A DNA stretch of 64,000 nt, from positions 545,838 to 609,837 of the forward strand of contig JAXLZS010000001.1 of NCBI GenBank assembly GCA_046350775.1, in the 5' to 3' direction. Made by a program: the position numbers and the translations under genes. Under the pieces are notes generated by a model, which did not search any database, had not been told where the DNA came from, and saw only the letters and a list, made by a program, of their open reading frames with translations. Origin of the DNA: Minisyncoccota bacterium. Lineage in GTDB: Bacteria > Patescibacteriota > Minisyncoccia > Phycocordibacterales > UBA5272. Below, one piece after another: positions 1 to 55,147 of the stretch (positions within the stretch are counted from its first letter, which is position 1; every line of letters starts with the position of its first letter).

Positions 1-2
1 CT

Positions 3-914
3 CAATTTACTAACAGTGCAGGATCTTGTACCATCAATCCACTCACTTCTTCTTTATCATGTAGCTCTGATATAAACCTAAAAAAGAATATTACTAAATT
101 ATCAGATGACACACCATTTGTCTTAACCGCATTAAATCTAGTAAGTACTACGACTTTAGATAAAATAAACTCTCTAGACTCTGTAATGTATAATTGGAAT
201 AATGAAAGTGATCAAGATAGTAAACATGCTGGATTCATTGCTCAGCAAGTAGAGCAACTATTCCCAGATCTAGTATCTCTAGACTCTAGAGGATACAAAA
301 CACTTAATTATGCTGGATTTGTACCATATCTAGCTGAATCAATCAAAGAACTCAACAACAAAGCACTATTTGCTAGTGTAGGATCATCAACACTAGTAAA
401 CAATACTCTCCAGACTTCTCTAAATGATTTCTCTTTATTCATATCTACTCTCAATGATAACAATCTAGTATCTACAAATCTCACCAATCTCCACGATCTA
501 TTTTCAAGTTCTTCTCTCTCAGCTATCAAATCTCTAACCAACACTCTCACACAATCAGGATTTGATCTTAATCTAAATGGAAACGCTCTCACCAATGTCA
601 AATCTATTCAGAGTATGAGTGGAAATTGGAGGGTGGGGGAGGATGGGGTGATTTATGCAAATTCATTATGTCTAAGAAATTCTTCCGGACAAAATGTATG
701 TATAAATGCTGATCAATTGCAAAGTTTGACAGGTGTTGCTCCTTCTCAAGGAGTAGTAGACACACCTCAAGAAGTCGCTCAAGACAATACAAACAGTACA
801 TCAAGTACCTCAACAAATGAAAATAATGCAAATTTGAATAGTGAAATAATAGACAATTCTTCAAATTCTTCTACGACTACAGACATAGTCACAGATACAC
901 AAAATAATCCTTAA
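3..914 (+). CDS. C-terminal fragment of a giant tail-fibre-like surface protein (5' truncated by the window edge). It contains the peptidase-S74-type intramolecular chaperone domain and an S/T/N-rich tail.
   Basis: The reading frame is open from position 3; the ORF track only shows the part from the internal Met at 186. It carries the motifs SDINLKKNI and YNWNNESDQDSKHAGFIAQQVEQLFPDLV that are typical of Pfam 'chaperone of endosialidase' / Peptidase_S74. Positions 339-646 are about 99% identical in DNA to 15408-15714. Confidence 0.7.
   Translation, partial: QFTNSAGSCTINPLTSSLSCSSDINLKKNITKLSDDTPFVLTALNLVSTTTLDKINSLDSVMYNWNNESDQDSKHAGFIAQQVEQLFPDLVSLDSRGYKTLNYAGFVPYLAESIKELNNKALFASVGSSTLVNNTLQTSLNDFSLFISTLNDNNLVSTNLTNLHDLFSSSSLSAIKSLTNTLTQSGFDLNLNGNALTNVKSIQSMSGNWRVGEDGVIYANSLCLRNSSGQNVCINADQLQSLTGVAPSQGVVDTPQEVAQDNTNSTSSTSTNENNANLNSEIIDNSSNSSTTTDIVTDTQNNP
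339..646 (+). repeat. Near-identical 308-bp tract shared with 15408-15714 (about 99% nucleotide identity), embedded in otherwise diverged paralogues.
   Basis: Direct comparison shows only about 4 mismatches, for example tctctaaccaac against tctttaactaac and aatgtcaaa against aatgttaaa. Confidence 0.85.
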
Positions 915-1076
915 TATTCAAAATGAGTTATCCACAATTGTCTTTTATAAAAGACTTGTCCTTTATAAAATTGTCGTTTATAATATATACATATAAGCAA
1001 GGGTCGCTCAACTTTATAGTTGGCGACTTTTGTTTTTATTCAAATCATCATTATTAATTTTATAAAAAAAAATATT

Positions 1077-4000
1077 ATGAATAAAGTCATAAAAATATTT
1101 CTAATCACAGCAATTGTTTTCAATGTGTCTTATTTTTCTGCTAGTGCACAGACTGGAGGATTTTGGAGTAATCTATATACAAAGATATCTTGCAGTGTCT
1201 CGAGTATTTTTTCTGGAAAAGAAAAATGTAATATTAACACTAATATTATAAATACAAATACAAAGAAAGCAAAATCTGAAGATACTTCTTTAGTTAAAGA
1301 AAATAACTCTATTCAATCAGAAACAAAAAATTTGAATACTAATACTAGTCAGATTGTGTATCTTCAAGGTCCCGCTGGTCCTGCTGGACAAAAAGGTGAT
1401 AAAGGAGAAAAGGGTGATGTGGTATATGTGAATAATCCAAACCAAAATACAAACTGGTCTAGTCTGTATGTGCCAGAATTAAAATATCAATATGTGCCGG
1501 TCGCCAGCTCTGATGCGACAAATAGAGTCACTCCAAATGCAGCTATAACTGTACAAAATACAGGGTCTTTATTTTCTACTGGTCTCTCTGGATCCGGAAG
1601 CTCTTCAGATGCTAATCATGCAAATATTTTTGGTGTAAATGCTGGATATGATGCTACATATGCCTCTGAGTCCAACTTCTTAGGATATCAATCTGGATAT
1701 CAAGCAATCAATGCCTATAACTCAAACTTCTTTGGATCAAATGCCGGCAATGGTGCAACCAATGCAAACAGCTCAAACTTCTTTGGACAAATGTCAGGAA
1801 AAGATGCTACTGATGCCTATAATTCAAACTTCTTAGGATACCAATCAGGATATGGTGCAACCAATTCATTCCACTCCAATTTCTTTGGATCATACGCTGG
1901 ACAAGGTGCCACCAACGCTGCCAACTCAATATTTATAGGAAGAAGTGCTGGTCAAAATGATACAGTAGATAATACAATCAACGGTCTCTCTTCTATACTC
2001 ATAGGCTCATACACTAATACGGGAGGATATTCTAATTCTATATTACTCGGTAATGGTACAAGCGGATCTCCAATCTCAAATACAAAAGCAAACCAATTCA
2101 TGCTTGCTCCTTCTATCACAGAATTAAATCTAAGAGGAGTTAATTACACTTTGCCTTCTACTATCGGTGCAACAGGTACAGTCCTCACAAATGATGGTAG
2201 TGGAGTACTCAGTTGGGGAGTGGGAGGGGGAGGTGCGACAGATGCTTTTGTGCAAGATGGCAACTCATTTTCTGCTCTAGCTACTCTAGGTACAAATGAT
2301 AATAACGATCTAGCATTTGAGACAAATGGTACAGAGAAGATGAGACTGACAACTGATGGAAGACTCGGTATAAATACCACAAATCCTACATCTCTTTTAC
2401 ATATATCAGTCCCAGAGACAAATACGACCTTTTCTGGTGCAGGATTAAATGATGCTGTCTTCAGTGGCACATATTCTGGTCCTGGTGATTTTGTGACAAT
2501 CACAATAACCTCGACAGACCCATCTGGAGATACCTACTCATACAGCTCATGCTGTGGTGGAGGTAATAATACTATATCTGCTGGAGTTACTCAGAGTCTC
2601 ATCTGGGGTATGTCTGTGACATTTGCTTCTGCTACTGGACATCAGGTAGGTGATAGCTGGACTTATTATTCCTCCTCTCGGGCCTCTTTAAATACGCCTG
2701 CTATTCAAGTAAAAGGGTCATCTGGAAATTATTTTATAGTCAACGCAATTGCTAATAATTCAAACTTTATAGGAGAAGAGGCCGGCTCTCAAGCTACAAA
2801 TGCTGAATTTTCAAATTTTTTTGGTTGGAGATCTGGTTATCAAGCAACCTATGCCAGCGATTCAAACTTCTTAGGTCAAAATGCTGGCTATGGTGCAACC
2901 TCTGCCTCCGCTTCAAACTTCTTAGGTTATTATGCTGGCTATCAAGCAACCTCTGCCCGCCAATCAAACTTCTTAGGACAAGTTGCTGGATATCAAGCAA
3001 CCTCTGCCAACTATTCAAACTTCTTAGGTAACTATGCTGGCTACCAAGCAGCCAATGCCTCCAATTCAAACTTCTTAGGTCAAAATGCTGGACAAGGTGC
3101 AACCTCTGCAGACAATTCAAACTTCTTCGGTCAAAGTGCTGGCTTTAATGCAACAGACGCTAACTATTCCAACTTCTTAGGTAGCTATGCTGGACAAGAT
3201 GCAACAAACGCTAACTTTTCAAACTTCTTAGGTACTGCTGCTGGATATGGCGCAACATACGCTGACCATTCCAACTTCTTTGGATCAAATGCTGGCAATG
3301 GTGCAACAGACGCTTACTATTCCAACTTCTTTGGGCCAAGTGCTGGCTTTAATGCAACAAACGCTAACTCTTCCAACTTCTTAGGTGGCAATGCTGGCTC
3401 TAATGCAACAAACGCTTACTCTTCCAACTTCTTAGGACGTGAGGCTGGCTCTGGTGCAACCGATGCTTACCATTCCAACTTCTTAGGACAGAATGCTGGC
3501 TATCAAGCCACCTATGCCAACTATTCCAACTTCTTAGGTAACTATGCTGGCTATGGTGCAACCGATGCTTACCATTCCAACTTCTTAGGTCAAAATGCTG
3601 GACGAGGTGCAACTTCTGCTTCCTATTCAAATCTATTTGGATATCAAGCAGGAAAGACATTTACTAATAATACTATAGGTGCAAACAATATCATAATCGG
3701 TACAAACATATCTCTACCGAATGGGACAGCTAATGCAATGAATATCGGTGGAGTATTGTTTGGTTCTGGATTTAACTCAGATACATCTAGCGACCCAAAT
3801 ATTACAGCTGTCACAAGTGGTAAAATTGGTATTGCTAAAATCAATCCTCAATATACTCTCGATGTGGGAAATTCTTCAACTATTGGCATCATAGCTCAAT
3901 TCACCAATTCTACAGGCTATTGTACAATCAATCCTACAAACACATCTTTGTCTTGTACTTCAGATATAAATCTCAAGAAAAATATTGTAAATATTAAAGA

Positions 4001-4574
4001 TGGCAGTGAATTTGTACTTGGAAATATAAATGCTTCTGACTCTGTATCTATACTAGACAAAATATCTGGTCTTGATCCAGTCTATTATAATTGGAAATCA
4101 GAACAAGATACTGATGCAAAGCATGCAGGATTCATAGCTCAGCAAGTGGAGCAAGTATTTCCAGATCTCGTCACTACAGATGGCAATACTAATATCAAAT
4201 CTGTAAACTATACTGGATTCACTCCATACATAGTCAATGCTATAAAAGAAATAAAAAATACTATCTCAGGTACTATCACCGCCATGAAGGGATACTTTGA
4301 GGAGATATTTACCAAAAAGATACATACAGATATGCTTTGTGTTAAAAAATCAGACGGTACAGAATTTTGTGCGAATGGTGATCAGTTAGAATCTGCTCTA
4401 AATAATATAAATGGTGGAAGTACGACAAATACTTCTATCTCATCAGGAGATGATAATCTGGAAAATCTTACCGTATCAGCATCTTCTAGTCCTTCTATAG
4501 AAGAAGAGATTTTAGATTCTTCCACAACCGTAGACACATTGATAGATACATCAGACACACAAAATAATAATTAA
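1077..4574 (+). CDS. Giant secreted tail-fibre-like protein: signal peptide, collagen-like GXY tract (GPAGPAGQKGDKGEKGD), about 25 tandem 17-aa repeats (SNFLGxxAGxxATxAxx) and a C-terminal S74 intramolecular-chaperone domain.
   Basis: ORF 1020..4574; the likely start is the ATG at 1077 (MNKVIKIFLITAIVFNVSYFSASAQ signal peptide, AAATATTATG start context). The GXY tract is at about 1366-1416. The 51-bp-period repeats lie at 1620-1960 and 2755-3660. The C-terminus has SDINLKKNI ... DPVYYNWKSEQDTDAKHAGFIAQQVEQVFPDLV (about 3962-4172). Confidence 0.75.
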   Translation: MNKVIKIFLITAIVFNVSYFSASAQTGGFWSNLYTKISCSVSSIFSGKEKCNINTNIINTNTKKAKSEDTSLVKENNSIQSETKNLNTNTSQIVYLQGPAGPAGQKGDKGEKGDVVYVNNPNQNTNWSSLYVPELKYQYVPVASSDATNRVTPNAAITVQNTGSLFSTGLSGSGSSSDANHANIFGVNAGYDATYASESNFLGYQSGYQAINAYNSNFFGSNAGNGATNANSSNFFGQMSGKDATDAYNSNFLGYQSGYGATNSFHSNFFGSYAGQGATNAANSIFIGRSAGQNDTVDNTINGLSSILIGSYTNTGGYSNSILLGNGTSGSPISNTKANQFMLAPSITELNLRGVNYTLPSTIGATGTVLTNDGSGVLSWGVGGGGATDAFVQDGNSFSALATLGTNDNNDLAFETNGTEKMRLTTDGRLGINTTNPTSLLHISVPETNTTFSGAGLNDAVFSGTYSGPGDFVTITITSTDPSGDTYSYSSCCGGGNNTISAGVTQSLIWGMSVTFASATGHQVGDSWTYYSSSRASLNTPAIQVKGSSGNYFIVNAIANNSNFIGEEAGSQATNAEFSNFFGWRSGYQATYASDSNFLGQNAGYGATSASASNFLGYYAGYQATSARQSNFLGQVAGYQATSANYSNFLGNYAGYQAANASNSNFLGQNAGQGATSADNSNFFGQSAGFNATDANYSNFLGSYAGQDATNANFSNFLGTAAGYGATYADHSNFFGSNAGNGATDAYYSNFFGPSAGFNATNANSSNFLGGNAGSNATNAYSSNFLGREAGSGATDAYHSNFLGQNAGYQATYANYSNFLGNYAGYGATDAYHSNFLGQNAGRGATSASYSNLFGYQAGKTFTNNTIGANNIIIGTNISLPNGTANAMNIGGVLFGSGFNSDTSSDPNITAVTSGKIGIAKINPQYTLDVGNSSTIGIIAQFTNSTGYCTINPTNTSLSCTSDINLKKNIVNIKDGSEFVLGNINASDSVSILDKISGLDPVYYNWKSEQDTDAKHAGFIAQQVEQVFPDLVTTDGNTNIKSVNYTGFTPYIVNAIKEIKNTISGTITAMKGYFEEIFTKKIHTDMLCVKKSDGTEFCANGDQLESALNNINGGSTTNTSISSGDDNLENLTVSASSSPSIEEEILDSSTTVDTLIDTSDTQNNN
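1905..2234 (+). repeat. Near-identical 330-bp tract shared with 12518-12847 (about 98% nucleotide identity).
   Basis: Direct comparison shows about 6 mismatches. It encodes NSIFIGRSAGQNDTVDNTINGLSSILIGSYTNTGGYSNSILLG...NYTLPSTIGATGTVLTNDGSGVLSWGVGGGG. Confidence 0.85.
2755..3660 (+). repeat. About 18 tandem copies of a 51-bp (17-aa) coding repeat, SNFLGxxAGxxATxAxx. A further 7 or so copies lie at 1620-1960, and 7 or so in the paralogue at 12228-12575.
   Basis: The nucleotide motif tcaaacttcttaggt recurs with a period of 51. The in-frame protein period is 17 aa. Confidence 0.8.
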
Positions 4575-4584
4575 TTATAAAAAT

Positions 4585-5916
4585 ATGTCACACACATTTA
4601 CATCAAAAAAAATCTTCATGCTGTTATTTTTAGGAATAATTCTTTTCAGTATTCCTCATAATTTTGCTCAGACTGTAGGTCAGTCATACGACACCAGTGG
4701 TTTTTCTCCTATTATGAATGATGCTCCATGTGTAGATTTACAATATGATCTGAGACCAGGATCTAGAGATTATTATATATATGGAAATGTGATGAAATTG
4801 CAAATGTTTTTATATCAAAATGAAATGATGGCGTATCCTCCGACTGGTCTATATGCGAATTATACTTTTAACGCTGTATTAAATTTTCAAAATTCAGTAG
4901 GATTGAGACCTACAGGTGTAGTTGATTACTATACTAGGATGGCTCTAAAAAAAGTATCTTGCCCAGCTGAAAATGTTAATACTAATTATTCAAATCAGAA
5001 TAATTCAAATAATTATAATCAAAACAACTATCAATATGTGATAAATAGTAATCCAGTAATAAATACACAAACTCTATTTTATTGCTCATTTAATGGAGTG
5101 TCATACGCATCTCAGTCTGATTACAATTATTATTGTATAAATAATAATACTCAGATTAAGTATACAGTCTCATTCAATTCTAATGGTGGAAGCTCTATAA
5201 GCTCACAGAGTATCTTAGCTGGCTACACTTTGCCTATATCATCATATGTTCCTACAAAATCCGGATACACTTTCGCTGGATGGTATACAGATACCGGTCT
5301 TACAAATCTTTATGATTTCTCAAATCCAGTGACTTCAAATATCACTCTTTATGCTAAATGGAATGAGGACAATACTGCATATACATACACTGTATCATTT
5401 CAATCTAATGGTGGTAAAAGTATAGATTCTCAATCTGTGACATCAGGCTCATATGCTATTAGACCATCTGACCCTTCAAGATCTGGCTACAATTTTGCTG
5501 GATGGTATACAGATTCTGGACTTACAAATCTTTACGATTTCTCAAATCCTGTGACTTCAAATATCACTCTTTATGCTAAATGGTCTCTTTATGACAGGAC
5601 TTCATTTGGGGCGCAAGTGAGTATGATATTATGCTCATCCTCTGTATTATTTGAGCCTGTTTACGATGACTTTTGGCAGTTGCAAAGTTATAAATCATAT
5701 TGTCTTTCAGATACTTCTGTTTCTGGTTATAATTCTACAAATCCAGGCAAATATCCTGTCTCTCGTGATTATATATTAGTCCCAGCATCAAATATAAATT
5801 TTGGAGCAATAAAAATAGGAGAGGAGTATTATAGTCTGACCGATCAATATATTTATCAGACTATCTCTGGATCTTCATATAAGAAATATCAAGTCTCACT
5901 AATGATAAAACAATAA
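4585..5916 (+). CDS. Secreted protein with an N-terminal peptidoglycan-binding-like domain and two Listeria-Bacteroides (Flg_new) repeats.
   Basis: Signal peptide MSHTFTSKKIFMLLFLGIILFSIPHNFAQ. A PG_binding_1-like motif (MKLQMFLYQ...TGLYANYTFNAVLNFQNSVGLRPTGVVDYYTRMAL). Two copies of YTVSFxSNGG...SGYTFAGWYTDxGLTNLYDFSNPVTSNITLYAKW. Confidence 0.6.
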   Translation: MSHTFTSKKIFMLLFLGIILFSIPHNFAQTVGQSYDTSGFSPIMNDAPCVDLQYDLRPGSRDYYIYGNVMKLQMFLYQNEMMAYPPTGLYANYTFNAVLNFQNSVGLRPTGVVDYYTRMALKKVSCPAENVNTNYSNQNNSNNYNQNNYQYVINSNPVINTQTLFYCSFNGVSYASQSDYNYYCINNNTQIKYTVSFNSNGGSSISSQSILAGYTLPISSYVPTKSGYTFAGWYTDTGLTNLYDFSNPVTSNITLYAKWNEDNTAYTYTVSFQSNGGKSIDSQSVTSGSYAIRPSDPSRSGYNFAGWYTDSGLTNLYDFSNPVTSNITLYAKWSLYDRTSFGAQVSMILCSSSVLFEPVYDDFWQLQSYKSYCLSDTSVSGYNSTNPGKYPVSRDYILVPASNINFGAIKIGEEYYSLTDQYIYQTISGSSYKKYQVSLMIKQ

Positions 5917-5920
5917 ATAT

Positions 5921-6343
5921 ATGTTGAATAAAAAGACACAACAAATAATAGATAGGGAAAATGAGCACTTGCCTCTTTCTGGCAATCTTTATGAGAAAAA
6001 TCAAAGAAGAATATCTCTCTCTAGATCTTTTAAAGTTATGTTTTTGTCTATCGTCAGTGGTCTCGTAGTCGTAATTGTGATTTTTGGATATATAAATAGT
6101 GCCAAAACAAAAGCAGAATCTGTCACTCAAGAAAATGTGATTTCTCAACTTAGTAAACAAATATCTTTACCAAATGAGGCTCCTGTCACTTTTTTGAGGG
6201 TTTCTGATGCAAAAAATCTTTCTCTTCAAGATGAATTTTATAAAAATGTCCAAAATGGAGACTATATTATAGTCTACAGCTCTATGGCCCTAGTTTATGA
6301 TTTTTCAAATAATAAGATAGAAAATGTTAAAACAATCAGATGA
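5921..6343 (+). CDS. Hypothetical single-pass membrane protein.
   Basis: 140-aa ORF with a hydrophobic segment FKVMFLSIVSGLVVVIVIFGYI. No recognisable domain. Confidence 0.4.
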   Translation: MLNKKTQQIIDRENEHLPLSGNLYEKNQRRISLSRSFKVMFLSIVSGLVVVIVIFGYINSAKTKAESVTQENVISQLSKQISLPNEAPVTFLRVSDAKNLSLQDEFYKNVQNGDYIIVYSSMALVYDFSNNKIENVKTIR

Positions 6344-6405
6344 TAAAGAAAAAATATTTTATCAATAATTTTTTCTACTAAAAAATCATTTATAATCATT
6401 TTTAT

Positions 6406-6434
6406 TTGCATATTATCATTATTTATGATAATAT
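6406..6434 (+). promoter_or_regulatory. Sigma70-like promoter TTGCAT-N17-TAATAT upstream of tuf.
   Basis: TTGCAT at 6406-6411, a 17-nt spacer, TAATAT at 6429-6434. The same hexamers and spacing occur upstream of the 16S rRNA gene. Confidence 0.45.
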
Positions 6435-6576
6435 TTGTGGTATTCACTTAGCTTTATCTTTAATTTGGCGGAGTGCATTTATAAGTTTATAAATTTAGTT
6501 TAATAAAGGTCCAATATTATTTCACGAATAGATGTAGAAATAACAAGACCAAATCAATAATAATCAATAAAATTTT

Positions 6577-7770
<1,194 letters not shown>

Positions 7771-7811
7771 TTATAAAAACTAATCGCTCTTTCTAATCAA
7801 GTTATAAATTT

Positions 7812-8252
7812 ATGACAGAAACAAAAAAACCAGCAACAAAAAAAACAGTAGCTAAAAAAGTTGCTACCAAAAAAGCAGTTGCTAAAAAGCCTATCGATAT
7901 AAAGACAGAAGGTGATTTTCCAAAATCTAAAGCTAAAAAAGGAGATGAAAATAAACTTCGAATTTTAGTCAAAGCTTATGAGCCTAAAGTGCTCGACATA
8001 TCTGTCAAACAAATAATTGATACAGCAAAAAGATTTGATGCGGAAATTTTAGGACCAGTTCCTCTTCCAATTGAAATCTCAAAATACACAGTAAACAGAT
8101 CAACATTTGTTTACAAAAATGCTAGAGAGCAATTTGAGATCAGAGTTCACAAAAGACTCATTGATATCATAAATCCAAACCCAAAATTGATCGAAGCTCT
8201 GACAAATTTGTCACTTCCATCAGGTGTAGACATTAATGTCAAAATGGGTTAG
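7812..8252 (+). CDS. rpsJ: 30S ribosomal protein S10 with an N-terminal Lys/Ala-rich extension of about 45 aa.
   Basis: The C-terminal 100 aa match S10 (KLRILVKAYEP...FEIRVHKRLIDI...). The N-terminus is MTETKKPATKKTVAKKVATKKAVAKKPIDIK. Confidence 0.9.
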   Translation: MTETKKPATKKTVAKKVATKKAVAKKPIDIKTEGDFPKSKAKKGDENKLRILVKAYEPKVLDISVKQIIDTAKRFDAEILGPVPLPIEISKYTVNRSTFVYKNAREQFEIRVHKRLIDIINPNPKLIEALTNLSLPSGVDINVKMG

Positions 8253-8360
8253 TATAAGATTCTTAAGATTAAGTTTTTAAGAAAGCAAAATTATTAAAAA
8301 TAAAATAAATCGACCAATGGCTCTCCTCACAAGAGAGAGTTATGTCGTTACTGAAAATAT

Positions 8361-8969
8361 ATGAAATTCATGATTGCCACAAAACAGAATATGACTCAGT
8401 TCTTTGATGATGAAGGAGTGGTGCATCCAGCTACAGTCTTGTCTGCTGGCCCACTTACTGTCACTCAAGTAAAGACCAAAGAAAAAGATGGCTATGAGTC
8501 AGTACAGGTCGCTTCTTTCCCACAAAAGAAAGAAAGAGTCTCAAAATCTGTACTTGGTCACACAGCAGAAGCTTTTAAAGTCATAAAAGAATTTAGAGGA
8601 AATGTTGGTGATTTACAAAAAGGAGCAAGTATCAATATTGATATTCTCCAAGCAGGAGACGTAGTCACATTGTCTGGTATTTCTAAAGGAAAAGGCTTTC
8701 AAGGAGTCGTCAAAAGACATGGCTTCAAAGGAGGCTGGGGACAACATGGACAAAAGCACTCACTTCGCGAGCCAGGATCAATTGGAGGAGGAGGACGTGC
8801 CGGAGGTCGTGTCGTCAAAGGAAAGAAAATGGCCGGAAGAATGGGTTCTGATAGAGTTACCCAAAAGAATGTAAAAGTACTCGATGTCGATGTAGAGCAC
8901 GGACTAATCTTAGTAAAGGGTGCTGTTCCTGGTAAAAGAGGCACAGTTATCGAAATAGTTCAAAAATAA
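8361..8969 (+). CDS. rplC: 50S ribosomal protein L3.
   Basis: MIATKQNMTQFFDDEGVVHPATV...GKGFQGVVKRHGFKGG. The start may be at 8361 or 8370. Confidence 0.9.
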   Translation: MKFMIATKQNMTQFFDDEGVVHPATVLSAGPLTVTQVKTKEKDGYESVQVASFPQKKERVSKSVLGHTAEAFKVIKEFRGNVGDLQKGASINIDILQAGDVVTLSGISKGKGFQGVVKRHGFKGGWGQHGQKHSLREPGSIGGGGRAGGRVVKGKKMAGRMGSDRVTQKNVKVLDVDVEHGLILVKGAVPGKRGTVIEIVQK

Positions 8970-8987
8970 TTTCTGAAATAAAAATAT

Positions 8988-9650
8988 ATGAAAACACAAG
9001 TATACAATCAATCAGGAAAAGCAGTAAAAGAAATTGATCTACCAGAAAATATTTTTGGCTTACCTTTTAATGGAGACTTAGTTTCTCAAGTGCTTTATAT
9101 CCAAAGAGCAAATCAAAGAGCTGGTACAGCTCACACAAAAGATCGTGGCGAAGTGGCTGGTTCAAATCAAAAGCCTTGGCAACAAAAAGGTACTGGTCGC
9201 GCAAGACACGGATCAAAAAGATCTCCAATATGGAGACATGGAGGTGTGACTCATGGACCAAGAAATGAAAAGAGTTACAAAAAAGATCTTCCAAAAAACA
9301 TGAAGACTCAAGCTCTCTTTTCTCTATTATCTGCCAAATTAAAGGATGGAAAAATACTTTTCATCGATGAGATCACAGCTACAACTTCAAAAACTAAAGA
9401 TGCAGTAGCAATAATGAAGAATATTGCAACTGTTAAAAACTTTGAAAATCTAGTTTACAAGAAAAAAGGAAATGTCTATATGACTTTTCCAAAGCTTCTT
9501 GCAAATGAAAAAAGATCATTTAGAAATCTTCCTTATGTCATGGCACATAATATGGAAGATCTAAATCCTAACGATATCGCTAATGCGAGATATCTAGTTA
9601 TTACCAATCCAGAAGCTACTGTCGAGTATCTTAATAGTAAATTAAAATAA
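8988..9650 (+). CDS. rplD: 50S ribosomal protein L4.
   Basis: QKGTGRARHGSKRSPIWRHGGVTHGP motif. Position in the operon. Confidence 0.9.
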   Translation: MKTQVYNQSGKAVKEIDLPENIFGLPFNGDLVSQVLYIQRANQRAGTAHTKDRGEVAGSNQKPWQQKGTGRARHGSKRSPIWRHGGVTHGPRNEKSYKKDLPKNMKTQALFSLLSAKLKDGKILFIDEITATTSKTKDAVAIMKNIATVKNFENLVYKKKGNVYMTFPKLLANEKRSFRNLPYVMAHNMEDLNPNDIANARYLVITNPEATVEYLNSKLK

Positions 9651-9654
9651 ATTT

Positions 9655-9984
9655 ATGACTAAAAAAGAAATCACAACAAAAGATACTAAAGATGAGAATG
9701 TCAAAGTAGAAAAAAATAATTCTCTTATAATTTCTCCAAGATTGACAGAGAAAGCTGCAAATCTTTCATCACAAAATGTTTACACATTCAATGTGAAAGA
9801 AGAGGCGACAAAGATAACTCTTGCTCAAGAAATCAAAAAAACTTATAAAGTAACTCCTATAAAGATTACTATTATCAACAATCCTCGCACAGCAGTATTT
9901 GCTAGAGGAAAGCTTGGATTCCAATCTAAATTTAAAAAAGCTTCTGTCTTTTTAAAGAAAGGAGACAAAATAAACTTAGCATAA
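9655..9984 (+). CDS. rplW: 50S ribosomal protein L23.
   Basis: 109 aa. Position between rplD and rplB. L23-like ISPRLTEKA...YTFNV... Confidence 0.8.
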   Translation: MTKKEITTKDTKDENVKVEKNNSLIISPRLTEKAANLSSQNVYTFNVKEEATKITLAQEIKKTYKVTPIKITIINNPRTAVFARGKLGFQSKFKKASVFLKKGDKINLA

Positions 9985-10046
9985 ATAATCCAACAAGAGC
10001 CGAAATACATTATGGTAAATTAAGCCGATAAATTAATTGTAAAATT

Positions 10047-10895
10047 ATGAAAAAATACAAACCAACAACCCCTTCAAGAAGAACAATGACAGGGATTGAT
10101 TACAGAAAAATCTTAACTAAAAGTAAACCAATAAAATCTCTAACAAGTGGATTTAGTCGTGGTAATGGAAGAAATTCTCACGGTCGTGTCACTACTTACT
10201 ACAAAGGTGGTGGACACAAGAGAAGCTATCGTGATGTGGATTTCAAATATAATAAATTTGATATTCCAGCAAGAATTGCTTCTGTAGAATATGATCCAAA
10301 CAGATCTGGCTTTATCGGTCTAGCTATTTATGCTGACGGAGAAAGAAGATATGTTCTTCTTCCAAAAGAGATCAAAGTAGGAGACAAATTCATCGTCTCA
10401 GAAAAAGCTGATCTGCATGTTGGAAATAGATGCATGCTAAGCAATATACCAGTAGGAACAAATGTCTACAATATTGAGATCAAAAAAGGAGCGGGTGCCA
10501 AGATGGTACGTAGTGCCGGAAGTTTTGCTCAAGTTGTCGCTCATGACAATGGCTTCACTTCTATCAAGCTACCTTCTACAGAAGTCAGAAAAGTGCCAGA
10601 CTTTTGCTACGCTTCAATCGGATCTGTTTCAAATGATGAATACAGATTGAGAGTTATCGGTAAAGCTGGTAGAAGTCGCTGGCTAGGTATCAGACCAAAG
10701 ACACGTGCCAAAGCTAAAAACCCAGTTGACCATCCATATGGAGGAGGGGAAGGAAGCCAACCAAGAGGTACAAGAAAGCCAAAGACAGCTACAGGAAAAG
10801 TTACTGGTGGTCGAAAGACAAGAAGAAGCAAGAAGTATTCTAACAGTCATATTGTGACAAGAAGATCTCGTGGCAAAAAGAACTCTAATGCTTAA
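10047..10895 (+). CDS. rplB: 50S ribosomal protein L2.
   Basis: YKGGGHKRSYRDVDF, GNRCMLSNIPVGT, HPYGGGEG motifs. Confidence 0.95.
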   Translation: MKKYKPTTPSRRTMTGIDYRKILTKSKPIKSLTSGFSRGNGRNSHGRVTTYYKGGGHKRSYRDVDFKYNKFDIPARIASVEYDPNRSGFIGLAIYADGERRYVLLPKEIKVGDKFIVSEKADLHVGNRCMLSNIPVGTNVYNIEIKKGAGAKMVRSAGSFAQVVAHDNGFTSIKLPSTEVRKVPDFCYASIGSVSNDEYRLRVIGKAGRSRWLGIRPKTRAKAKNPVDHPYGGGEGSQPRGTRKPKTATGKVTGGRKTRRSKKYSNSHIVTRRSRGKKNSNA

Positions 10896-10942
10896 TTAGA
10901 ATTTGCAAAAAAGCTATAAATATATTATTATAATTCAACAAT

Positions 10943-11380
10943 ATGCCAACAATTAATCAGTTAATCAAAAATAAAAGAAGTAAAGTCGCTAGAAAATCGA
11001 GATCTTTGACTCTAGGACAAGGCTGGAATTCTGTAAAGAATAAAGCTAATTTTTACAATTCTCCTTTTAAAAGAGGGGTTTGTACAAAGGTGACAACTAC
11101 CACTCCAAAGAAGCCTAACTCAGCTCTTCGTAAGATTGCTAGAATTAGACTCACAAATCAGCAAGAAGTCACAGCTTATATTCCAGGAGAAAAGCACAAG
11201 CTTCAAGAGCACTCAGTGGTCATGATTCGCGGAGGAAGGGTAAAAGACCTAGCCGGAGTTAGATATCACATAGTGAGAGGAAGACTTGATGCTACAGGTG
11301 TAGAAAATAGAAAGCAAGGTCGCTCAAGATATGGCGCTAAAAAGCCAAAAGCAGGAGCTGTTACAGCTAAGAAAAAATAA
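10943..11380 (+). CDS. rpsL: 30S ribosomal protein S12, displaced to follow rplB, with a Lys-rich C-terminal tail.
   Basis: [12 protein letters not shown]...[13 protein letters not shown]...VRYHIVRG. Canonically S12 heads the str operon upstream of rpsG-fusA-tuf. Confidence 0.9.
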
Positions 11381-11390
11381 TTTTCTAAAT

Positions 11391-11428
11391 AAAAACACTT
11401 CACACTTGTGAAGTGTTTTTATTTTTTC
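11391..11428 (+). terminator. Rho-independent terminator after rpsL.
   Basis: Perfect hairpin aaaaacacttcaca-cttg-tgaagtgttttt followed by a T-run. Confidence 0.7.
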
Positions 11429-11524
11429 CACAAAAATTTAAATAAATATTCTGCAATATATTATAGGTTGTGATAGAATGTAGATATGATAATGTGTCTC
11501 TATCTTATATCAAATTAAAACTTT

Positions 11525-14500
11525 ATGAATGTAAAAAAAACCACGTTTAGTTATTTTATAGTATCGTTATTTTTGTTTTCTACTCTTTTTTCTGTGGTTG
11601 GAGCTAAGAATGATAATCTCTTAACAAGATGGGATCTATTTTCTATAAATATATATTGTAAAGTTAATAGTCTTTTTAATATTAATAATCCAAAGTGTGA
11701 CTACACCAATATTCCTAAACAAATATCTGATATACAAATTCAAATAGACAATTTACCTAAAGAAAATAATACTAAAATAGTATATACAGCGACTTCTGGA
11801 GTTCAGTATATATATATCAGAGGCCCTAAAGGTGACACAGGATTACAGGGTCCAAAAGGAGACACTGTGTATATAGGCGCCAATGGTGCCACAACTACAA
11901 GTTGGGCTGATATTTGGAATAGTACAAATAGCCGAGAAATAAAATATCAATATGTGCCAGTAGCTAGTGGAGGAGGTAATGGGATCAATGGCACAAATGG
12001 AACAAATGGTACCAATGGAAAAAATGGTAAGGACGGAAATTATATAACTTTAATCACTCAAAATTCTACAAGTACAACTTATTATATTTATGATCCTAAT
12101 ACGAATTCTACTTCTACAATAGTAGTGGCTAGTCCTTATATCTCTTCAAATTCTCCAGTCACAATAGAAAATGGAAATTCTTTATTTTCAACAGGATTGA
12201 CCGGCACAGGCAGTTCGTCTTTAGCTACAAATTCTGTCTTCTTAGGAGAGGATGCCGGCAATGGTGCAACCAACGCCTCTTATTCAAACTTCTTTGGTCC
12301 TAGTGCTGGCTCAGGTGCAACCAGTGCCTTCCAATCTAACTTTTTGGGATATAAGGCTGGCCATAATGCAACATACGCTTACGGTTCAAACTTCTTAGGC
12401 ACATATGCTGGCAATAGTGCAACTGGTGCTTTTTATTCAAATTTTATTGGACAAAATGCTGGACAAAATGCAGCATCTGCTTACTCTTCCAACTTTTTAG
12501 GAGAGGTTGCCGGCAATGGTGCCACCAACGCTGCCAACTCAATATTCATCGGAAGAAGTGCTGGTCAAAATGATACAGTAGATAATACAATCAACGGTCT
12601 CTCTTCTATACTCATAGGCTCATACACTAATACGGGAGGATATTCTAATTCTATATTACTCGGTAGTGGTACAAGTGGATCTCCAATCTCAAATACAAAA
12701 GCAAACCAATTCATGCTTGCTCCTTCTATCACAGAATTAAATCTAAGAGGAGTTAATTACACTTTGCCTTCTACTATCGGTGCAACAGGTACAGTCCTCA
12801 CAAATGATGGTAGTGGAGTACTCAGTTGGGGAGTGGGAGGGGGAGGTTTTGGTGGAGGAACAACAACCATAACCTCACTTATAACTGGTGTCGCTCCCAT
12901 ATATCAAGGAGTTATATTAGACGAGCATTTCACTGGATCTTCTTTAGATACTGATACATGGTCAGCAGAAACAACTCCTACAGGAGTAACTGTTAATAAT
13001 AAATTAATAGTCTCATCAGGACAATCAGACTGGAGTAGATATATGGAATTTAAAAAGCATTATCTTTATGAGAAAGAAGACATTATTTTCGACTTTAAGC
13101 CATTAACCAAGAATTCAGGAGATGCATGGGGAATTACTCAAAATAGTTTGCTTGTATTATATAATAGCTCAATATATTTAAAAGTAGATCTTTCTAATGG
13201 TGTAAATAGCGGTAGACTTTCTATAGGAAACACAACTGCCGCAAATGAATATGGATATTCACAAGCTTTAGATTTTAATGCTGGAGACAATTTAAGATTA
13301 ACTATAAAACGTACACCGTGGAAAACTATAACAATATTAGAAAATTTGACAGATTCATCAAAACCAAAAGCATATGGTGAGTTTGATTTAAGACAATGGG
13401 GAACTCAAGGCAATTATCGTATCTCTTTTTTGGGTGGACAGCAAGAATTTACAAATATAAAAATTGATTCTAAAGTAAGAAATTATGGAGGCACAAAAGG
13501 GGTAGTATTTTTTGGAGATTCTATAACTAATGGTATTGGGGCCACTTCTGTAAGTAAAAGATGGACGGATGTTTTAATGAAAGGGCAGCAGAATCTGTTT
13601 GAAAATATGGGTATAGGTTCTTGGTTAACTGGTACCATGAATTCATCTAGAGTGACAGAATTATTGACCGGAATAAATGCTAAGTATTTATTTATAAATT
13701 TTGGTTATAATGATTTTGCGCAATATACTCCAACTTCAACTTATAGGGCAAATCTAGAAACTATCGCTACCACAGCCCAAGCTATGGGGTATACAACAAT
13801 ATTCGTTTCTCCATTTCCTAATGCTACGTACGACAGTTCATCTTATGCATCAGCTATGCAGACAGCAGCTGCTAATACTGGTAGTAAATATATAAGTATT
13901 ATTAATGCTACTTCTATTGGTGGAGTAGCAAATCCTAACTATTTATATGATGGAGTTCATCCTAATGATGAGGGATATAGAGTTATCGCTGAAGAAATAA
14001 AAAAACAAATTCCAGAAGTTTACAGTGATATGGTAAACAATATAGATTCAGGAAGTATTAAGAGTTATGATATGCCATTTGCTTTTGGTAATGAGAGTAT
14101 AGTCACTGTCGGATCTGATGGTATATTTAGACAGGCTTTAGCAGAGCAGTTCATAACAAAGAATTCACTAAGATTACAATCTATAGCATACGAGACACAA
14201 GACGGCTCAGTATCTTTATCTGGTGATATCATTCAAGGGGGATCTTTTCAACAAAAAAGTAATAATGGATTAAGGATAGGCTTTAATAATGGAGCTTATG
14301 ATAATAACGGCTCAAATATAACAATAACAAATGCTGGTACAGGAGGATCTGGGCATCCTCAACTCTTCAATACTATAAATGGCACTGAAAATATTATAAT
14401 AAATGCTTTGGCTCAAGTAGGAAAAGCAAATGCTGCTGGCTCTGTTTCCGGAAATAGAAATTTATTATTACAGACACCAATACCAAATTCTTATGATCTA

Positions 14501-16015
14501 TCTGGCAGTAGAAATATATTGATGTCATCAACAAATTTTGCCTTAAATACAGGAAGTGATAATATTTTAATAGGAGATCAATCAGGAGGACTGTTAACTA
14601 GTGGTAGCTATAATATAGCTCTTACTAGTAGACTTAATTATAATGGAGGAAGTTCTAGTTGGTCTGCTAATAATGCGGTAGGTACTATTATGATAGGTAC
14701 TCCATATGATTATTCTGGAGAAGAGCCACTGTCAAATGGAGAGGTTGTCATATCTTCTTATACAAGGTTTCAAAGAATTTATACATTTGGTACAAAGGGA
14801 GGACTTCAAACTTCTGTTGTTTGGAGACCGGGATATCAAGGAGGCATAAACTCTGCTGGAGCACCTCTTTATATACAAGGTACAAGAGCGACAGGTAATG
14901 CTGAGCCTGGTAATATAGTATTTCAGTTCTCGACACCGGGATCATCAGGAAGTGCTGTGCAAGGTACTTTTAGTGATACTCTTACTTTGTCTAGAAACTC
15001 TATATTTGCAAATAAAAACGTTGGTATTTTACAATCAAATCCTTCCTATGCTTTGCATGTAGGATCCTCAAGTATATCTGATGGTGCTACATTATTAAGA
15101 TTGGAAGATATAAATAGTACTTGTGATTTTAACGCTAATTCTGGATCTCCATCTTGTGGATCTGATATCACTCTTAAAAAAGATATATCATCTCTAGATA
15201 CATCTGATATCTTAATTAAGATAGGCAAACTTACTCCAGTGTCTTATCATTGGAAAACTCAAAAAGATGATGATATCTTAAATTATGGATTTATAGCTCA
15301 AGATGTCGGTGCACAATTTCCAGATCTTGTACATGAGGGTACATGGGTTGATGGTAGTAAAAGACTATTTTTGAATACTGGTGGGCTTATGCCTTATGTG
15401 GTTGGAGCAATCAAAGAACTCAACAACAAAGCACTATTTGCTAGTGTAGGATCATCAACACTAGTAAACAATACTCTCCAGACTTCTCTAAATGATTTCT
15501 CTTTATTCATATCTACTCTCAATGATAACAATCTAGTATCTACAAATCTCACCAATCTCCACGATCTATTTTCAAGTTCTTCTCTCTCAGCTATCAAATC
15601 TTTAACTAACACTCTCACACAATCAGGATTTGATCTTAATCTAAATGGAAACGCTCTCACCAATGTTAAATCTATTCAGAGTATGAGTGGAAATTGGAGG
15701 GTGGGGGAGGATGGAAAAATAATAGCAAAGACAATAAGGGTAGAAGGAATAGAGTTAAAAGATATAGATGGAAATTGGTATTGTTATGGATCACAAAATG
15801 GAAATCTGGTAAAAATTGGTATTGCTCCATGCTCGGATTCTGATTTAAACAATCTTCAATTTTCAAATAATCAATCCCCATCTACTCCTATTTCTACGAC
15901 AGAGCCTACAAGTACTGCTACCACCACAAATCAAGATTTAGGTACATCTTCTCCAGTAGAAGCAGATCCTTCTTCTTTAGATCCTAACACTACACCCGTT
16001 TCTGATCTTGAATAA
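11525..16015 (+). CDS. Giant (1496 aa) secreted tail-spike-like protein: signal peptide, two collagen-like GXY tracts, 17-aa tandem repeats, a ConA-like lectin/glucanase-fold domain, an SGNH (GDSL) esterase domain, a beta-rich region, a C-terminal S74 intramolecular-chaperone domain and an S/T/P-rich tail.
   Basis: Signal peptide MNVKKTTFSYFIVSLFLFSTLFSVVGA. GPKGDTGLQGPKGDT (about 11823-11870) and GINGTNGTNGTNGKNGKDG (about 11985-12047). Repeats at about 12228-12575. DEHFTGSSLDTDTWS (about 12910-13470). SGNH blocks FFGDSITNG / GYND / DGVHPNDEGY (about 13480-14040). SDITLKKDI ... VSYHWKTQKDDDILNYGFIAQDVGAQFPDLV (about 15160-15330). Confidence 0.75.
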   Translation: MNVKKTTFSYFIVSLFLFSTLFSVVGAKNDNLLTRWDLFSINIYCKVNSLFNINNPKCDYTNIPKQISDIQIQIDNLPKENNTKIVYTATSGVQYIYIRGPKGDTGLQGPKGDTVYIGANGATTTSWADIWNSTNSREIKYQYVPVASGGGNGINGTNGTNGTNGKNGKDGNYITLITQNSTSTTYYIYDPNTNSTSTIVVASPYISSNSPVTIENGNSLFSTGLTGTGSSSLATNSVFLGEDAGNGATNASYSNFFGPSAGSGATSAFQSNFLGYKAGHNATYAYGSNFLGTYAGNSATGAFYSNFIGQNAGQNAASAYSSNFLGEVAGNGATNAANSIFIGRSAGQNDTVDNTINGLSSILIGSYTNTGGYSNSILLGSGTSGSPISNTKANQFMLAPSITELNLRGVNYTLPSTIGATGTVLTNDGSGVLSWGVGGGGFGGGTTTITSLITGVAPIYQGVILDEHFTGSSLDTDTWSAETTPTGVTVNNKLIVSSGQSDWSRYMEFKKHYLYEKEDIIFDFKPLTKNSGDAWGITQNSLLVLYNSSIYLKVDLSNGVNSGRLSIGNTTAANEYGYSQALDFNAGDNLRLTIKRTPWKTITILENLTDSSKPKAYGEFDLRQWGTQGNYRISFLGGQQEFTNIKIDSKVRNYGGTKGVVFFGDSITNGIGATSVSKRWTDVLMKGQQNLFENMGIGSWLTGTMNSSRVTELLTGINAKYLFINFGYNDFAQYTPTSTYRANLETIATTAQAMGYTTIFVSPFPNATYDSSSYASAMQTAAANTGSKYISIINATSIGGVANPNYLYDGVHPNDEGYRVIAEEIKKQIPEVYSDMVNNIDSGSIKSYDMPFAFGNESIVTVGSDGIFRQALAEQFITKNSLRLQSIAYETQDGSVSLSGDIIQGGSFQQKSNNGLRIGFNNGAYDNNGSNITITNAGTGGSGHPQLFNTINGTENIIINALAQVGKANAAGSVSGNRNLLLQTPIPNSYDLSGSRNILMSSTNFALNTGSDNILIGDQSGGLLTSGSYNIALTSRLNYNGGSSSWSANNAVGTIMIGTPYDYSGEEPLSNGEVVISSYTRFQRIYTFGTKGGLQTSVVWRPGYQGGINSAGAPLYIQGTRATGNAEPGNIVFQFSTPGSSGSAVQGTFSDTLTLSRNSIFANKNVGILQSNPSYALHVGSSSISDGATLLRLEDINSTCDFNANSGSPSCGSDITLKKDISSLDTSDILIKIGKLTPVSYHWKTQKDDDILNYGFIAQDVGAQFPDLVHEGTWVDGSKRLFLNTGGLMPYVVGAIKELNNKALFASVGSSTLVNNTLQTSLNDFSLFISTLNDNNLVSTNLTNLHDLFSSSSLSAIKSLTNTLTQSGFDLNLNGNALTNVKSIQSMSGNWRVGEDGKIIAKTIRVEGIELKDIDGNWYCYGSQNGNLVKIGIAPCSDSDLNNLQFSNNQSPSTPISTTEPTSTATTTNQDLGTSSPVEADPSSLDPNTTPVSDLE

Positions 16016-16187: not shown

Positions 16188-16373
16188 ATGGCAAAAACGT
16201 CTGTCAAAGCAAGAGCTGCAAAGGCTCCAAAATTTTCTTCTCGTATAGTTAGAAGATGTTTTAAGTGTGGTCGAAGACATGGTTACATGAGAGATTTTGA
16301 TCTCTGTAGAATTTGTTTCCGTGAATTAGCAAACGAGGGTATGATCCCTGGTGTTAAAAAATCATCTTGGTAA
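16188..16373 (+). CDS. rpsN: 30S ribosomal protein S14, type Z (zinc-binding).
   Basis: 61 aa with CFKCGRRHGYMRDFDLCRIC. Confidence 0.9.
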   Translation: MAKTSVKARAAKAPKFSSRIVRRCFKCGRRHGYMRDFDLCRICFRELANEGMIPGVKKSSW

Positions 16374-16400: not shown

Positions 16401-16802
16401 ATGGATCAAATAGCAAACATGTTAAGTAGTATAAAAAACGCAGGACTCGTAAAAAGAGATTCTATTGTCGTTCCTCACTCTACCATCAAAGCTTCTATTT
16501 TAGAAGTTTTAAAAAGAGAAGGTTTTATAAAGACTTTTGAAATTATTGACTCTGGAAAAAACAAAAAAGAACTAAAAATAGTTCTAGAATATGTCGGAAA
16601 ACACCCAAACGTTTCTCCACGCGTAAATAATATTGAAAGAGTTTCAAAATTATCAAAAAGAGTCTATATTGGTTATAGAGATCTACACAAATTTAAATTC
16701 GGAAAAGGTTTAATAATTGTCTCTACTCCAAAAGGTATTCTTACCAATAAAGAAGCTCGTAAAGAGTTGGTCGGCGGTGAAGTATTATTTAATATCTGGT
16801 AA
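16401..16802 (+). CDS. rpsH: 30S ribosomal protein S8.
   Basis: MDQIANMLSSIKNA...GLIIVSTPKGILT...GGEVLFNIW. Confidence 0.92.
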   Translation: MDQIANMLSSIKNAGLVKRDSIVVPHSTIKASILEVLKREGFIKTFEIIDSGKNKKELKIVLEYVGKHPNVSPRVNNIERVSKLSKRVYIGYRDLHKFKFGKGLIIVSTPKGILTNKEARKELVGGEVLFNIW

Positions 16803-18840: not shown

Positions 18841-18846
18841 TAAAAT

Positions 18847-29080: not shown

Positions 29081-29082
29081 AA

Positions 29083-31765: not shown

Positions 31766-31790
31766 AAAATATTGTTTAACTTTTTAAAAT

Positions 31791-31824
31791 AATCGCATGA
31801 GATAACTCGTGCGATTTTTATTTT
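31791..31824 (+). terminator. Rho-independent terminator.
   Basis: aatcgcatgag-ataa-ctcgtgcgattttt (one G-U pair). Confidence 0.55.
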
Positions 31825-31903
31825 GTGGACAACTTTTAAATTTTATGAGTTTTATAATGTTATAATTTATTTATAATTACCAACATTAAAATTTATAAAT
31901 AAT

Positions 31904-34187: not shown

Positions 34188-34273
34188 TTAATCAAGCAAA
34201 AATAATATAGGTTTCCAATCAATTATTTAAAATAATGAAGACAGGAAAATAAAAATAAATTAATCGTAAAACT

Positions 34274-53621: not shown

Positions 53622-55147
<1,526 letters not shown>

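Follow-up and report, generated by a model that had tools for sequence, protein, structure and literature searches.

Putative Sec-exported, S74-chaperoned surface fibres with exchangeable heads encoded within a ribosomal-protein cluster of a Paceibacteria genome

The window analysed here is the whole 64-kb stretch of contig JAXLZS010000001.1 whose first lines are shown above. It encodes three related proteins, fibres 1 to 3, and these and all their features discussed below lie on the plus strand. A first reading of the letters alone (the sequence-only reading) had reported their open reading frames (ORFs), and all three were found, at 3..914 (partial), 1077..4574 and 11525..16015. We consider it probable that they are cell-encoded, Sec-exported, S74-chaperoned and probably trimeric surface fibres of a Paceibacteria cell, which would use exchangeable heads to bind or remodel the glycans of a partner cell. 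The best-supported comparison is that they are functionally analogous to a phage receptor-binding protein or a trimeric adhesin. The small-genome cell of the Candidate Phyla Radiation (CPR) type that had been proposed as their source agrees with the databases: fibre 2 (1165 aa) has a 100% identical counterpart, P0008, which NCBI names "tail fiber domain-containing protein" and assigns to a Candidatus Paceibacterota bacterium metagenome-assembled genome (MAG); it is encoded on a 614,345-bp contig.

Results

Peptidase_S74 (PF13884) matched all three fibres, with E values of 7e-15, 2e-14 and 9e-14 and scores of 52-55.5 bits against a Pfam cut-off of 22, and the SD(I)xLKK and GFIAQ motifs were found where the sequence-only reading had placed them. 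That reading had proposed Pfam searches for both the S74 and the SGNH domains, and both returned significant matches. The S74 domain occupies aa 22-91 of fibre 1 (nt 66-275), 3960..4175 in fibre 2 (GFIAQ at nt 4128-4142) and 15161..15334 in fibre 3. The predicted Ser/Lys dyads, with the Lys at +5, are S22/K27 in fibre 1 (predicted nucleophile at nt 66-68), S962/K967 in fibre 2 (Ser at nt 3960-3962) and S1213/K1218 in fibre 3 (Ser at nt 15161-15163). By analogy with known S74 domains, self-cleavage at the conserved Ser would free the residues C-terminal of it, which number 282, 204 and 284 in fibres 1, 2 and 3; these lengths agree with the C-terminal module of about 200-280 aa that had been predicted.

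The S-D-x3-K … G-F-(I/L)-A-Q motif was present in about 80 of 120 among the homologues listed, and an alignment of 20 diverse C-termini of the family had invariant S, D, K, G, A, Q and P columns. The profile of these 20 C-termini matched phage fibres 8jov (5.6e-16) and 6f45 (1.1e-15), the MyRF ICA domain 7dc3 (3.5e-10), T5 pb1 8hqz (1.1e-6) and phi29 gp12 3gud (4.7e-5), and its Ser and Lys columns aligned with SDERLK and SDRRIK of the solved domains. It was the family profile that reached the S74 structures in the PDB, whereas a single-sequence phmmer search of the PDB with fibre 3 matched the SGNH domain only. An AlphaFold2 monomer model of fibre 2 aa 700-1100 had a predicted local distance difference test score (pLDDT) of 80-90 over the S74 domain, and the best Foldseek match of the modelled domain was MyRF ICA 7dc3 (probability 1.0, TM(target) 0.53-0.55). 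The model therefore supports the S74 fold that had been suggested for checking by structure prediction. The accompanying claim that this chaperone is otherwise known from phages needs qualifying, since NCBI already names these CPR proteins "tail fiber domain-containing" and the family has about 1000 clusters.

The genes sit in a core cellular region. The window encodes ribosomal proteins S10, L3, L4, L23, L2, S12, S14, S8, L6, L18, S5, L15 and S7, together with EF-Tu, SecY, Map, EF-G, EF-P, RecG, phosphoketolase, acetate kinase, SecDF, an ABC exporter, DsbB, alanine racemase, a MurA-like EPSP-fold enzyme, 16S rRNA and two tRNAs. Fibre 3 (11525..16015, 1496 aa) lies between rpsL (10943-11380) and rpsN (16188-16373)/rpsH (16401-16802). 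Of the approximately 60 ORFs of the window, none matched a family of capsid, terminase, portal, baseplate or integrase proteins, which bears out the earlier statement that phage structural genes are absent nearby; the genes on either side code for ribosomal proteins, EF-Tu, SecY and 16S rRNA. In L001 and L002, two JGI metagenome contigs, a protein 96% identical to fibre 3 fills the slot between S12 and S14-S8, and the same rpsL-fibre-rpsN-rpsH order was found in a sister species (L096, a 611,968-bp scaffold). An assembly chimera as the source of this fibre-in-operon layout was rejected because three independent assemblies keep the same order. A tblastn search of the window with the three proteins found no further fibre copies.

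The N-termini of fibres 2 and 3 open with a basic n-region that leads into a hydrophobic core and an AxA-type site (SASA before Q and VGA before K). The predicted Sec signal peptide of fibre 2 spans 1077..1148 and would be cut between MNKVIKIFLITAIVFNVSYFSASA and QT, and that of fibre 3 spans 11525..11605 and would be cut between …FSVVGA and KN. Sec signal peptides had been claimed for all three proteins; they can be read in fibres 2 and 3, and the N-terminus of fibre 1 lies outside the window. We took the start of fibre 2 as the ATG at 1077, and an in-frame TTG at 1020 is also open upstream. In the window fibres, a signal-like segment appears to replace the virion-attachment N-terminal domain.

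Fibre 3 carries a distal cassette that is well supported by models as a jelly-roll plus SGNH carbohydrate esterase. Lipase_GDSL_2 matched aa 662-820 (E 1e-20, 75.2 bits, cut-off 32.9), and FFGDSITNG, GYND and DGVHPN were located at aa 662, 727 and 809. S666 (GDS), N729 (GxND), and D809 and H812 (DxxH) are invariant across 17 sequences. The Gly of SGNH block II is present in fibre 3 (MGIGSW), in a column that is not invariant among the homologues. The complete SGNH domain that had been described in the 1496-aa protein is borne out by the profile match, the full set of catalytic residues and the three motifs. In the cassette model, the jelly-roll β-sandwich (aa 459-653, 12899..13483, with DEHFTGSSLDTDTWS at nt 12920-12964) is all-β with a pLDDT of 80-93, the SGNH/GDSL esterase domain (aa 660-837, 13502..14035) has a pLDDT of 80-97, and the β-rich remainder (aa 838-1210, 14036..15154) is of low confidence, has no hidden Markov model (HMM) match and is homologous to proteins P0121-P0134 described below.

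With Foldseek, the best matches of the cassette were the two-domain carbohydrate esterases 7toh/7tog (acetyl-xylan esterase) and YxiM 2o14; many SGNH esterases also matched, among them sialate O-acetylesterases. The SGNH domain itself gave a TM(target) of 0.75-0.84 to TesA, EstA and other SGNH esterases. The β-sandwich alone matched the legume lectin FRIL 9vbx (E 3.9e-6, TM 0.49) and the GH43 C-terminal domain 1yrz, and it matched esterase N-domains as well as it did lectin folds. No ConA-like, Laminin_G or legume lectin HMM matched in Pfam at E <= 0.01 over the whole of fibre 3, and a permissive Pfam scan (E <= 5) of the other fibre sub-regions found nothing relevant to the ConA clan. A ConA-like or carbohydrate-binding-module-like sandwich, as the sequence-only reading had proposed, is thus modelled as a fold, and its word "lectin" was an overstatement; the label is a fold-level suggestion. 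From the fold neighbours and the phage-protein context, fibre 3 would have O-acetyl-glycan esterase activity.

A search with fibre 3 aa 448-1210 returned 16 proteins, 14 of which covered 62-98% of the query (11 at >=91%) at 36-52% identity (P0121-P0134). The likeness to deacetylating tailspikes is stronger than had been claimed, since at >90% coverage the cassette shows this identity to proteins in phage contexts. P0130 is encoded on a 73-kb contig (L006) with a large terminase (phrog_6681, 6e-158), an amidase endolysin and a helicase, and by its gene content this contig is a phage. P0121, which is 52% identical to the cassette, comes from a Sphingobacteriales MAG (L003), where small same-strand ORFs are followed by two GH108 lysozyme genes, P0121, a phage integrase and host genes. 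This region looks like a prophage and is not proven to be one; PHROGs gave only endolysin-type matches for the neighbours in L003 and none in L005. P0126 lies on an 86-kb contig of unannotated genes plus a 4308-aa polyvalent protein. None of the 14 cassette relatives has S74, and 12 of them lack a signal-like N-terminus. Por_Secre_tail, a type IX secretion signal, was seen in L006 on a phage ORF (8638-9189) close to the cassette protein, and in L003 it was seen on a host gene (18803-20095) adjoining the prophage-like region. These domains support a Bacteroidota host for the cassette phages.

The two full-length fibres share much of their layout. After the signal peptide, fibre 2 has a W-x7-C-x11-C module (approximately nt 1158-1229), a collagen-like (GXY)6 tract (nt 1368-1421), YQYVPV (nt 1485-1502) and a first repeat block of six 17-residue units, S-N-F-x-G-x-x-A-G-x-x-A-T-x-A-x-x (1620..1925). 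Fibre 3 has W36-C45-C58 (nt 11630-11698), (GXY)5 (nt 11822-11866), YQYVPV (nt 11945-11962), a G-x-N tract of 8 triplets (nt 11972-12043) and a block of six 17-residue repeats (12185..12545). The N-terminal Cys-pair module gave 2 matches in the homology search. The "neck" of fibre 2 (NSIFIGRSAGQ...WGVGGGG, 1923..2234) is nearly identical in protein to the neck block of fibre 3 (12536..12847), which ends in a poly-Gly junction (WGVGGGG, nt 12827-12847). The two proteins diverge right at this poly-Gly linker, and the cassette of fibre 3 starts directly after it. Fibre 2 continues with a middle domain (aa 387-561, 2235..2759) that is found again in many members of the family and matched no HMM, a second repeat block of eighteen 17-residue units (2760..3680), and a solenoid cap (NNIIIGTNISLP...) with the lead-in to S74 (3681..3959).

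Each fibre ends in a region beyond S74. In fibre 2 this region (4176..4571) contains a Cys pair (LCVKKSDGTEFC) and runs out in an acidic S/T-rich tail. In fibre 3 (15379..16012) a conserved block at 15379-15844, KELNNKALF…SMSGNWRVGEDG…C…C, stands ahead of an S/T/P-rich acidic tail. Fibre 1 (3..914) is represented by its C-terminal 303 aa, with an acidic, S/T/N-rich tail; the gene runs past the window start and its N-terminal architecture lies outside the window. No Pfam or PDB sequence match was found for the post-S74 block, the middle domain of fibre 2 or the β-rich half of the cassette.

Several general claims of the sequence-only reading stood in part. It had given the three proteins one architecture: S74 is common to all, and the uniformity was overstated because fibre 1 is a fragment and the repeat counts differ. 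Its "20 to 25 copies" of the repeat fits fibre 2, which has 24 (6 + 18), but not fibre 3, which has 6; the repeats of fibre 1 are not visible. The collagen-like GXY tracts are real and short, with 6 and 5 triplets, and score below the Pfam collagen threshold (19.1 vs 27.2 bits). In NCBIfam, fibre 2 matched no family and fibre 3 gave only weak, sub-threshold matches to SclA/SclB.

The repeats form 20 in-register copies with a 51-nt tandem periodicity (Tandem Repeats Finder (TRF) scores 189-609). AlphaFold2 modelled the second repeat block of fibre 2 as a regular solenoid with a pLDDT of 94-98 and one short strand per 17 residues. This confident model suggests that the 17-residue repeats form a β-solenoid, in keeping with the β-helix or β-roll that had been predicted. 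Foldseek found no solved relative of the repeat block in fibre 2 aa 700-1100, and the nearest solved folds of the solenoid model include phage tailspike depolymerases. The repeat is common to phages: gp257 of Sphingomonas phage PAU is 51% identical over aa 560-910, and the repeat also occurs in a Methanosarcinales virus "virion structural protein" and in a Leptolyngbya phage. PHROGs matched the tail-fibre family phrog_5481 at 2.5e-9, and two IMG/VR contigs carry the repeats. One contig, L008 (IMG/VR 3300040786_000030, 193 kb), has a 49%-identical repeat-fibre match that is broken into pieces, and very few ORFs of >=120 aa under table 11. An alternative genetic code may account for this, or the contig may be a piece of a CPR genome that was misclassified as viral.

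The fibre loci are the fast-changing parts of an otherwise stable region. Fibre 3 and its orthologue in L001 differ at 176 nt, and 133 of these differences fall in its 360-nt repeat block (12185..12545), which also has a one-unit indel of 51 nt. The nucleotide divergence between strains is approximately 28% in this block and approximately 1% in the rest of the gene; aa 351-1496 are identical. The changes sit at variable, non-scaffold positions of the repeat. A diversity-generating retroelement as the source of this hypervariability is unsupported, since neither a reverse transcriptase among the window ORFs of >=250 aa nor a template-like copy was found in the window. A donor cassette for the variable block inside the window was also rejected, the best other match being 72-73%.

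From 6399 on, L001 and L002 are otherwise 98.5-99.6% identical to the window in nucleotides. Positions 1-6398, with the fibre 2, peptidoglycan-binding and 140-aa genes, had no megablast match to either contig, and both carry another fibre C-terminus and a shorter, 242-aa PG_binding_1 protein upstream of tuf. This pattern indicates that the whole locus upstream of tuf is replaced between strains. The paralogues in the window are mosaics of one another. A stretch of 336 nt is 96% identical between fibres 1 and 3 (311-646 vs 15379-15714) downstream of diverged S74 domains, which marks 311..646 as a recombination or gene-conversion tract. Fibres 2 and 3 have approximately 600 nt in common at 83%.

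The sister species offers a larger difference in the same slot. P0044, which occupies the fibre 3 position in L096, has an N-terminal module with 34% identity and shares the repeats. Its C-terminus is 57% identical to that of fibre 3 overall and approximately 85% identical in the post-S74 block, and its middle has NHL/SGL-type β-propeller repeats in place of the jelly-roll and SGNH domains. As judged from this comparison, the distal cassette has been exchanged at a fixed locus between sister species.

The family is large. At least 320 homologues are listed, mostly of 800-2500 aa with PF13884 and from Patescibacteria MAGs. An exhaustive HMMER search gave 959 clusters of 50% identity at E <= 1e-30 and 3887 at E <= 1e-10. 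Species-representative genomes yielded 59 loci, and nearly all of these carry the label Nomurabacteria, Paceibacteria, Patescibacteria or Saccharibacteria, often with several loci per genome. A signal-like N-terminus is present in 65-70 of the 113 family members starting with Met. The two signal-less members that we checked, P0074 and P0048, come from phage genomes of 128 kb and 378 kb, where a T4 gp13-like protein, an intein-bearing PolB and endonuclease VII are also encoded. The N-terminus appears to decide how the fibre is deployed, with a virion adaptor in phages and an export signal in cells. P0004, a homologue of 2041 aa from a different metagenome, ends in an EF-Tu sequence (PF00009). 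In that lineage, either the fibre gene lies directly upstream of tuf or an artefact of gene calling or a frameshift has joined the two.

Two neighbours follow fibre 2 directly, with small gaps. The first (4585..5916, plus strand, 10 nt after fibre 2) encodes an exported protein with PG_binding_1 and Flg_new (Listeria-Bacteroides repeat). The second (5921..6343, plus strand, 4 nt after the peptidoglycan-binding gene) encodes a 140-aa protein with one transmembrane segment, which is kept in L096. There, the upstream set comprises a 1628-aa fibre, a PG_binding_1/Flg_new protein, the 140-aa membrane protein and tuf. The gaps of 10 and 4 nt suggest that the fibre 2, peptidoglycan-binding and 140-aa genes are co-transcribed. 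The PG_binding_1/Flg_new protein would be a candidate wall anchor or partner of the fibre.

Discussion

Under our favoured reading of exported surface fibres, each chain would run from the signal peptide through the Cys-pair module, a short collagen-like tract, the β-solenoid shaft, the neck and poly-Gly and the distal cassette to S74. The S74 domain would set three chains in register and would then cut itself off at Ser962 or Ser1213, using the Lys five residues on. The cassette of fibre 3 would bind and de-O-acetylate a surface glycan of the partner cell, and fibre 2 would carry more solenoid where fibre 3 has the cassette. The fibres would be retained on the cell, perhaps through the adjacent peptidoglycan-binding protein. 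Signal cleavage, trimerisation, autocleavage, cell retention, adhesion and the remodelling of partner glycans are the parts of this reading that we infer.

Several points weigh against it. The signal-peptide call came from reading the sequence by eye. No LPXTG, SLH, C-terminal transmembrane segment or lipobox was found in the fibre proteins, and with no anchor and a signal peptide that is cleaved, retention on the cell would be unexplained. The proposed trimer draws on the analogy with phage fibres, and our models are of monomers. The block after S74 is far better conserved than the S74 domain itself, at approximately 85% between species and 96% in nucleotides between paralogues, which fits poorly with a chaperone that is simply thrown away. 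The shaft, and not the distal head, varies most between strains, whereas a simple model in which the tip binds the receptor predicts otherwise. The β-rich half of the cassette is poorly modelled, and the cassette had no tblastn match among 50,697 deposited phage genomes. Finally, the full-text literature searched held no description of S74 fibres in CPR bacteria; an earlier description elsewhere is possible.

The sharing of repeat and cassette with phages raises a further idea, which we put forward tentatively and regard as possible though not probable. Patescibacteria and phages may share one pool of receptor-binding modules, from which the cell swaps phage-derived heads and diversifies the solenoid to track its partners; the post-S74 block might then be a second functional product. 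If so, the partner might be a Bacteroidota cell (Sphingobacteriales-like) with an O-acetylated glycan, since the closest cassette relatives are found in Bacteroidota phage and prophage contexts.

Another explanation is that the proteins are secreted and not cell-bound, acting as free tailspike-like fibres or enzymes that strip or alter the capsule or wall glycans of neighbours. The purpose might be to scavenge nutrients, to prepare a host surface for attachment or to act as a bacteriocin-like weapon. The AxA-type sites after a hydrophobic N-terminus and the lack of any anchor motif in the fibres would suit it, as would the resemblance of the SGNH cassette to soluble carbohydrate esterases; phage depolymerases, too, act as free trimers. 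We nevertheless think it unlikely, since an enzyme that diffuses away would hardly repay the cost of long shafts and collagen-like stalks, fibre 2 is devoid of any enzyme domain, and exported peptidoglycan-binding and small membrane proteins are kept downstream of fibre 2 in two species, suggesting a docking system.

Less likely still is a role at the cell's own envelope, either as a coat or spacer that gives structure, in which the SGNH domain would work on O-acetylated peptidoglycan or glycans of the same cell, or as anti-phage decoys or shields. The position of the genes within a core, highly expressed ribosomal-protein cluster, the PG_binding_1 protein adjoining fibre 2 and the hypervariability of the solenoid, which is the expected result of phage or antagonist pressure on a coat, would all agree with such a role. 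However, the nearest relatives of the cassette are phage or prophage proteins that act on the surfaces of other cells, and the cassette is swapped for an unrelated β-propeller in the sister species, which is unexpected for a housekeeping wall enzyme. That these are prophage or degraded-phage tail-fibre genes lying here by chance is very improbable: S74, the shaft repeat and the cassette do all occur in phages, and the repeat-bearing IMG/VR contigs are viral listings, but no gene for a capsid, terminase, portal, baseplate or integrase protein was found in the 64 kb, the fibre genes lie between rpsL and rpsN and next to tuf with synteny in strains and the sister species, their ORFs are intact with signal peptides that the checked phage relatives lack, and their GC content matches the flanks.

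The exported surface fibres that we favour resemble several known systems in part. Phage fibres with a C-terminal intramolecular chaperone domain (K1F endosialidase, T5 pb1, phi29 gp12 and S16 gp37; PF13884) likewise have a C-terminal S74 Ser-Lys on a fibrous β-protein. They and the tailspikes also share the β-solenoid shaft and modular, exchangeable receptor-binding or enzymatic cassettes, and here the repeat and cassette are directly homologous. Unlike phage fibres, the window fibres are encoded in the core genome between ribosomal-protein genes, have a Sec signal in place of a virion-attachment domain, and carry a conserved block of 100-150 aa and an acidic S/T-rich tail after the chaperone. 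De-O-acetylating phage receptor-binding proteins and two-domain esterases (PbeAcXE 7toh, YxiM 2o14 and sialate O-acetylesterases) are alike in combining a jelly-roll with SGNH and a full catalytic set; in contrast to the two-domain esterases, the cassette of fibre 3 sits in the middle of a 1496-aa exported fibre between solenoid and S74.

Compared with trimeric autotransporter adhesins (YadA, UspA1 and BpaC) and β-helical adhesins (pertactin and PfbA), the window fibres lack a YadA-type anchor, and no Hep_Hag or other HMM of the trimeric autotransporters matched them. Trimerisation would use a cleavable S74 and not a β-barrel, and the organism is a CPR bacterium. In Scl1/Scl2 and BclA, too, a GXY tract comes after the signal peptide and builds a trimeric stalk, whereas the fibres have only 5-6 triplets, no LPXTG and an unrelated remainder. 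The eukaryotic MyRF ICA domain is likewise a phage S74 chaperone domesticated by a cell. It releases a transcription factor from the membrane of the endoplasmic reticulum, unlike the S74 here, which ends an extracellular fibre.

None of the parts is new in itself, and the family already goes by the label "tail fiber domain-containing" in databases. What appears to be new is the cellular, Sec-exported deployment, the placement in a ribosomal-protein cluster, the exchange of cassettes at a fixed locus, a head shared with Bacteroidota phages and the localised hypervariability between strains. Partner attachment in CPR bacteria has so far been ascribed mainly to type IV pili and some unnamed adhesins (PMC11623550, PMC10633639). 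A fibre family of approximately 1000 clusters, of phage receptor-binding type, gives testable candidates for partner recognition, and we suggest that partners might be predicted by matching fibre heads to phage receptor-binding proteins of known host. This would be the second clear cellular takeover of the phage S74 chaperone, after eukaryotic MyRF.

Additional observations in the window

The ribosomal superoperon around fibre 3 is scrambled. At 6577-37346 it reads tuf-S10-L3-L4-L23-L2, S12, fibre 3, S14-S8-L6-L18-S5-L15-SecY-Map-(137 aa)-S7-EF-G, and an S19-L22-S3-L16…L14…L5 block follows 10 kb further, at 33837-37346. The scrambled order is real, since it is the same up to EF-G in L001, L002 and L096. 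No L30 gene was found between S5 and L15 (17753-18840). Loss of L30 is expected for CPR bacteria, and its lack here is consistent with a CPR/Patescibacteria genome.

Other genes were noted further along. At 26294-29448 are a 928-aa VirD4/TraG-type coupling-protein-like ATPase (TraG-D_C, TrwB_AAD_bind, DUF87) and then a DUF559 endonuclease-like protein, which may be part of a patescibacterial type IV secretion system. Just upstream of the S19 block, 30467-33673 encodes a further pair of putative surface proteins, one of 432 aa with Flg_new and one of 589 aa with a weak DUF5874 match.

Within 53615-57933, the 16S rRNA gene (53615-55137) has no 23S after it in the window; protein ORFs (55487-57808) and then tRNA-Ile (57860) follow, and the rRNA genes look unlinked. 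Finally, S10 has an N-terminal extension of approximately 49 aa (7812-7960) that derives from A-rich 15-nt tandem repeats (TRF 7815-7888). Its length is kept in L001 and L096, where S10 has 146-147 aa.

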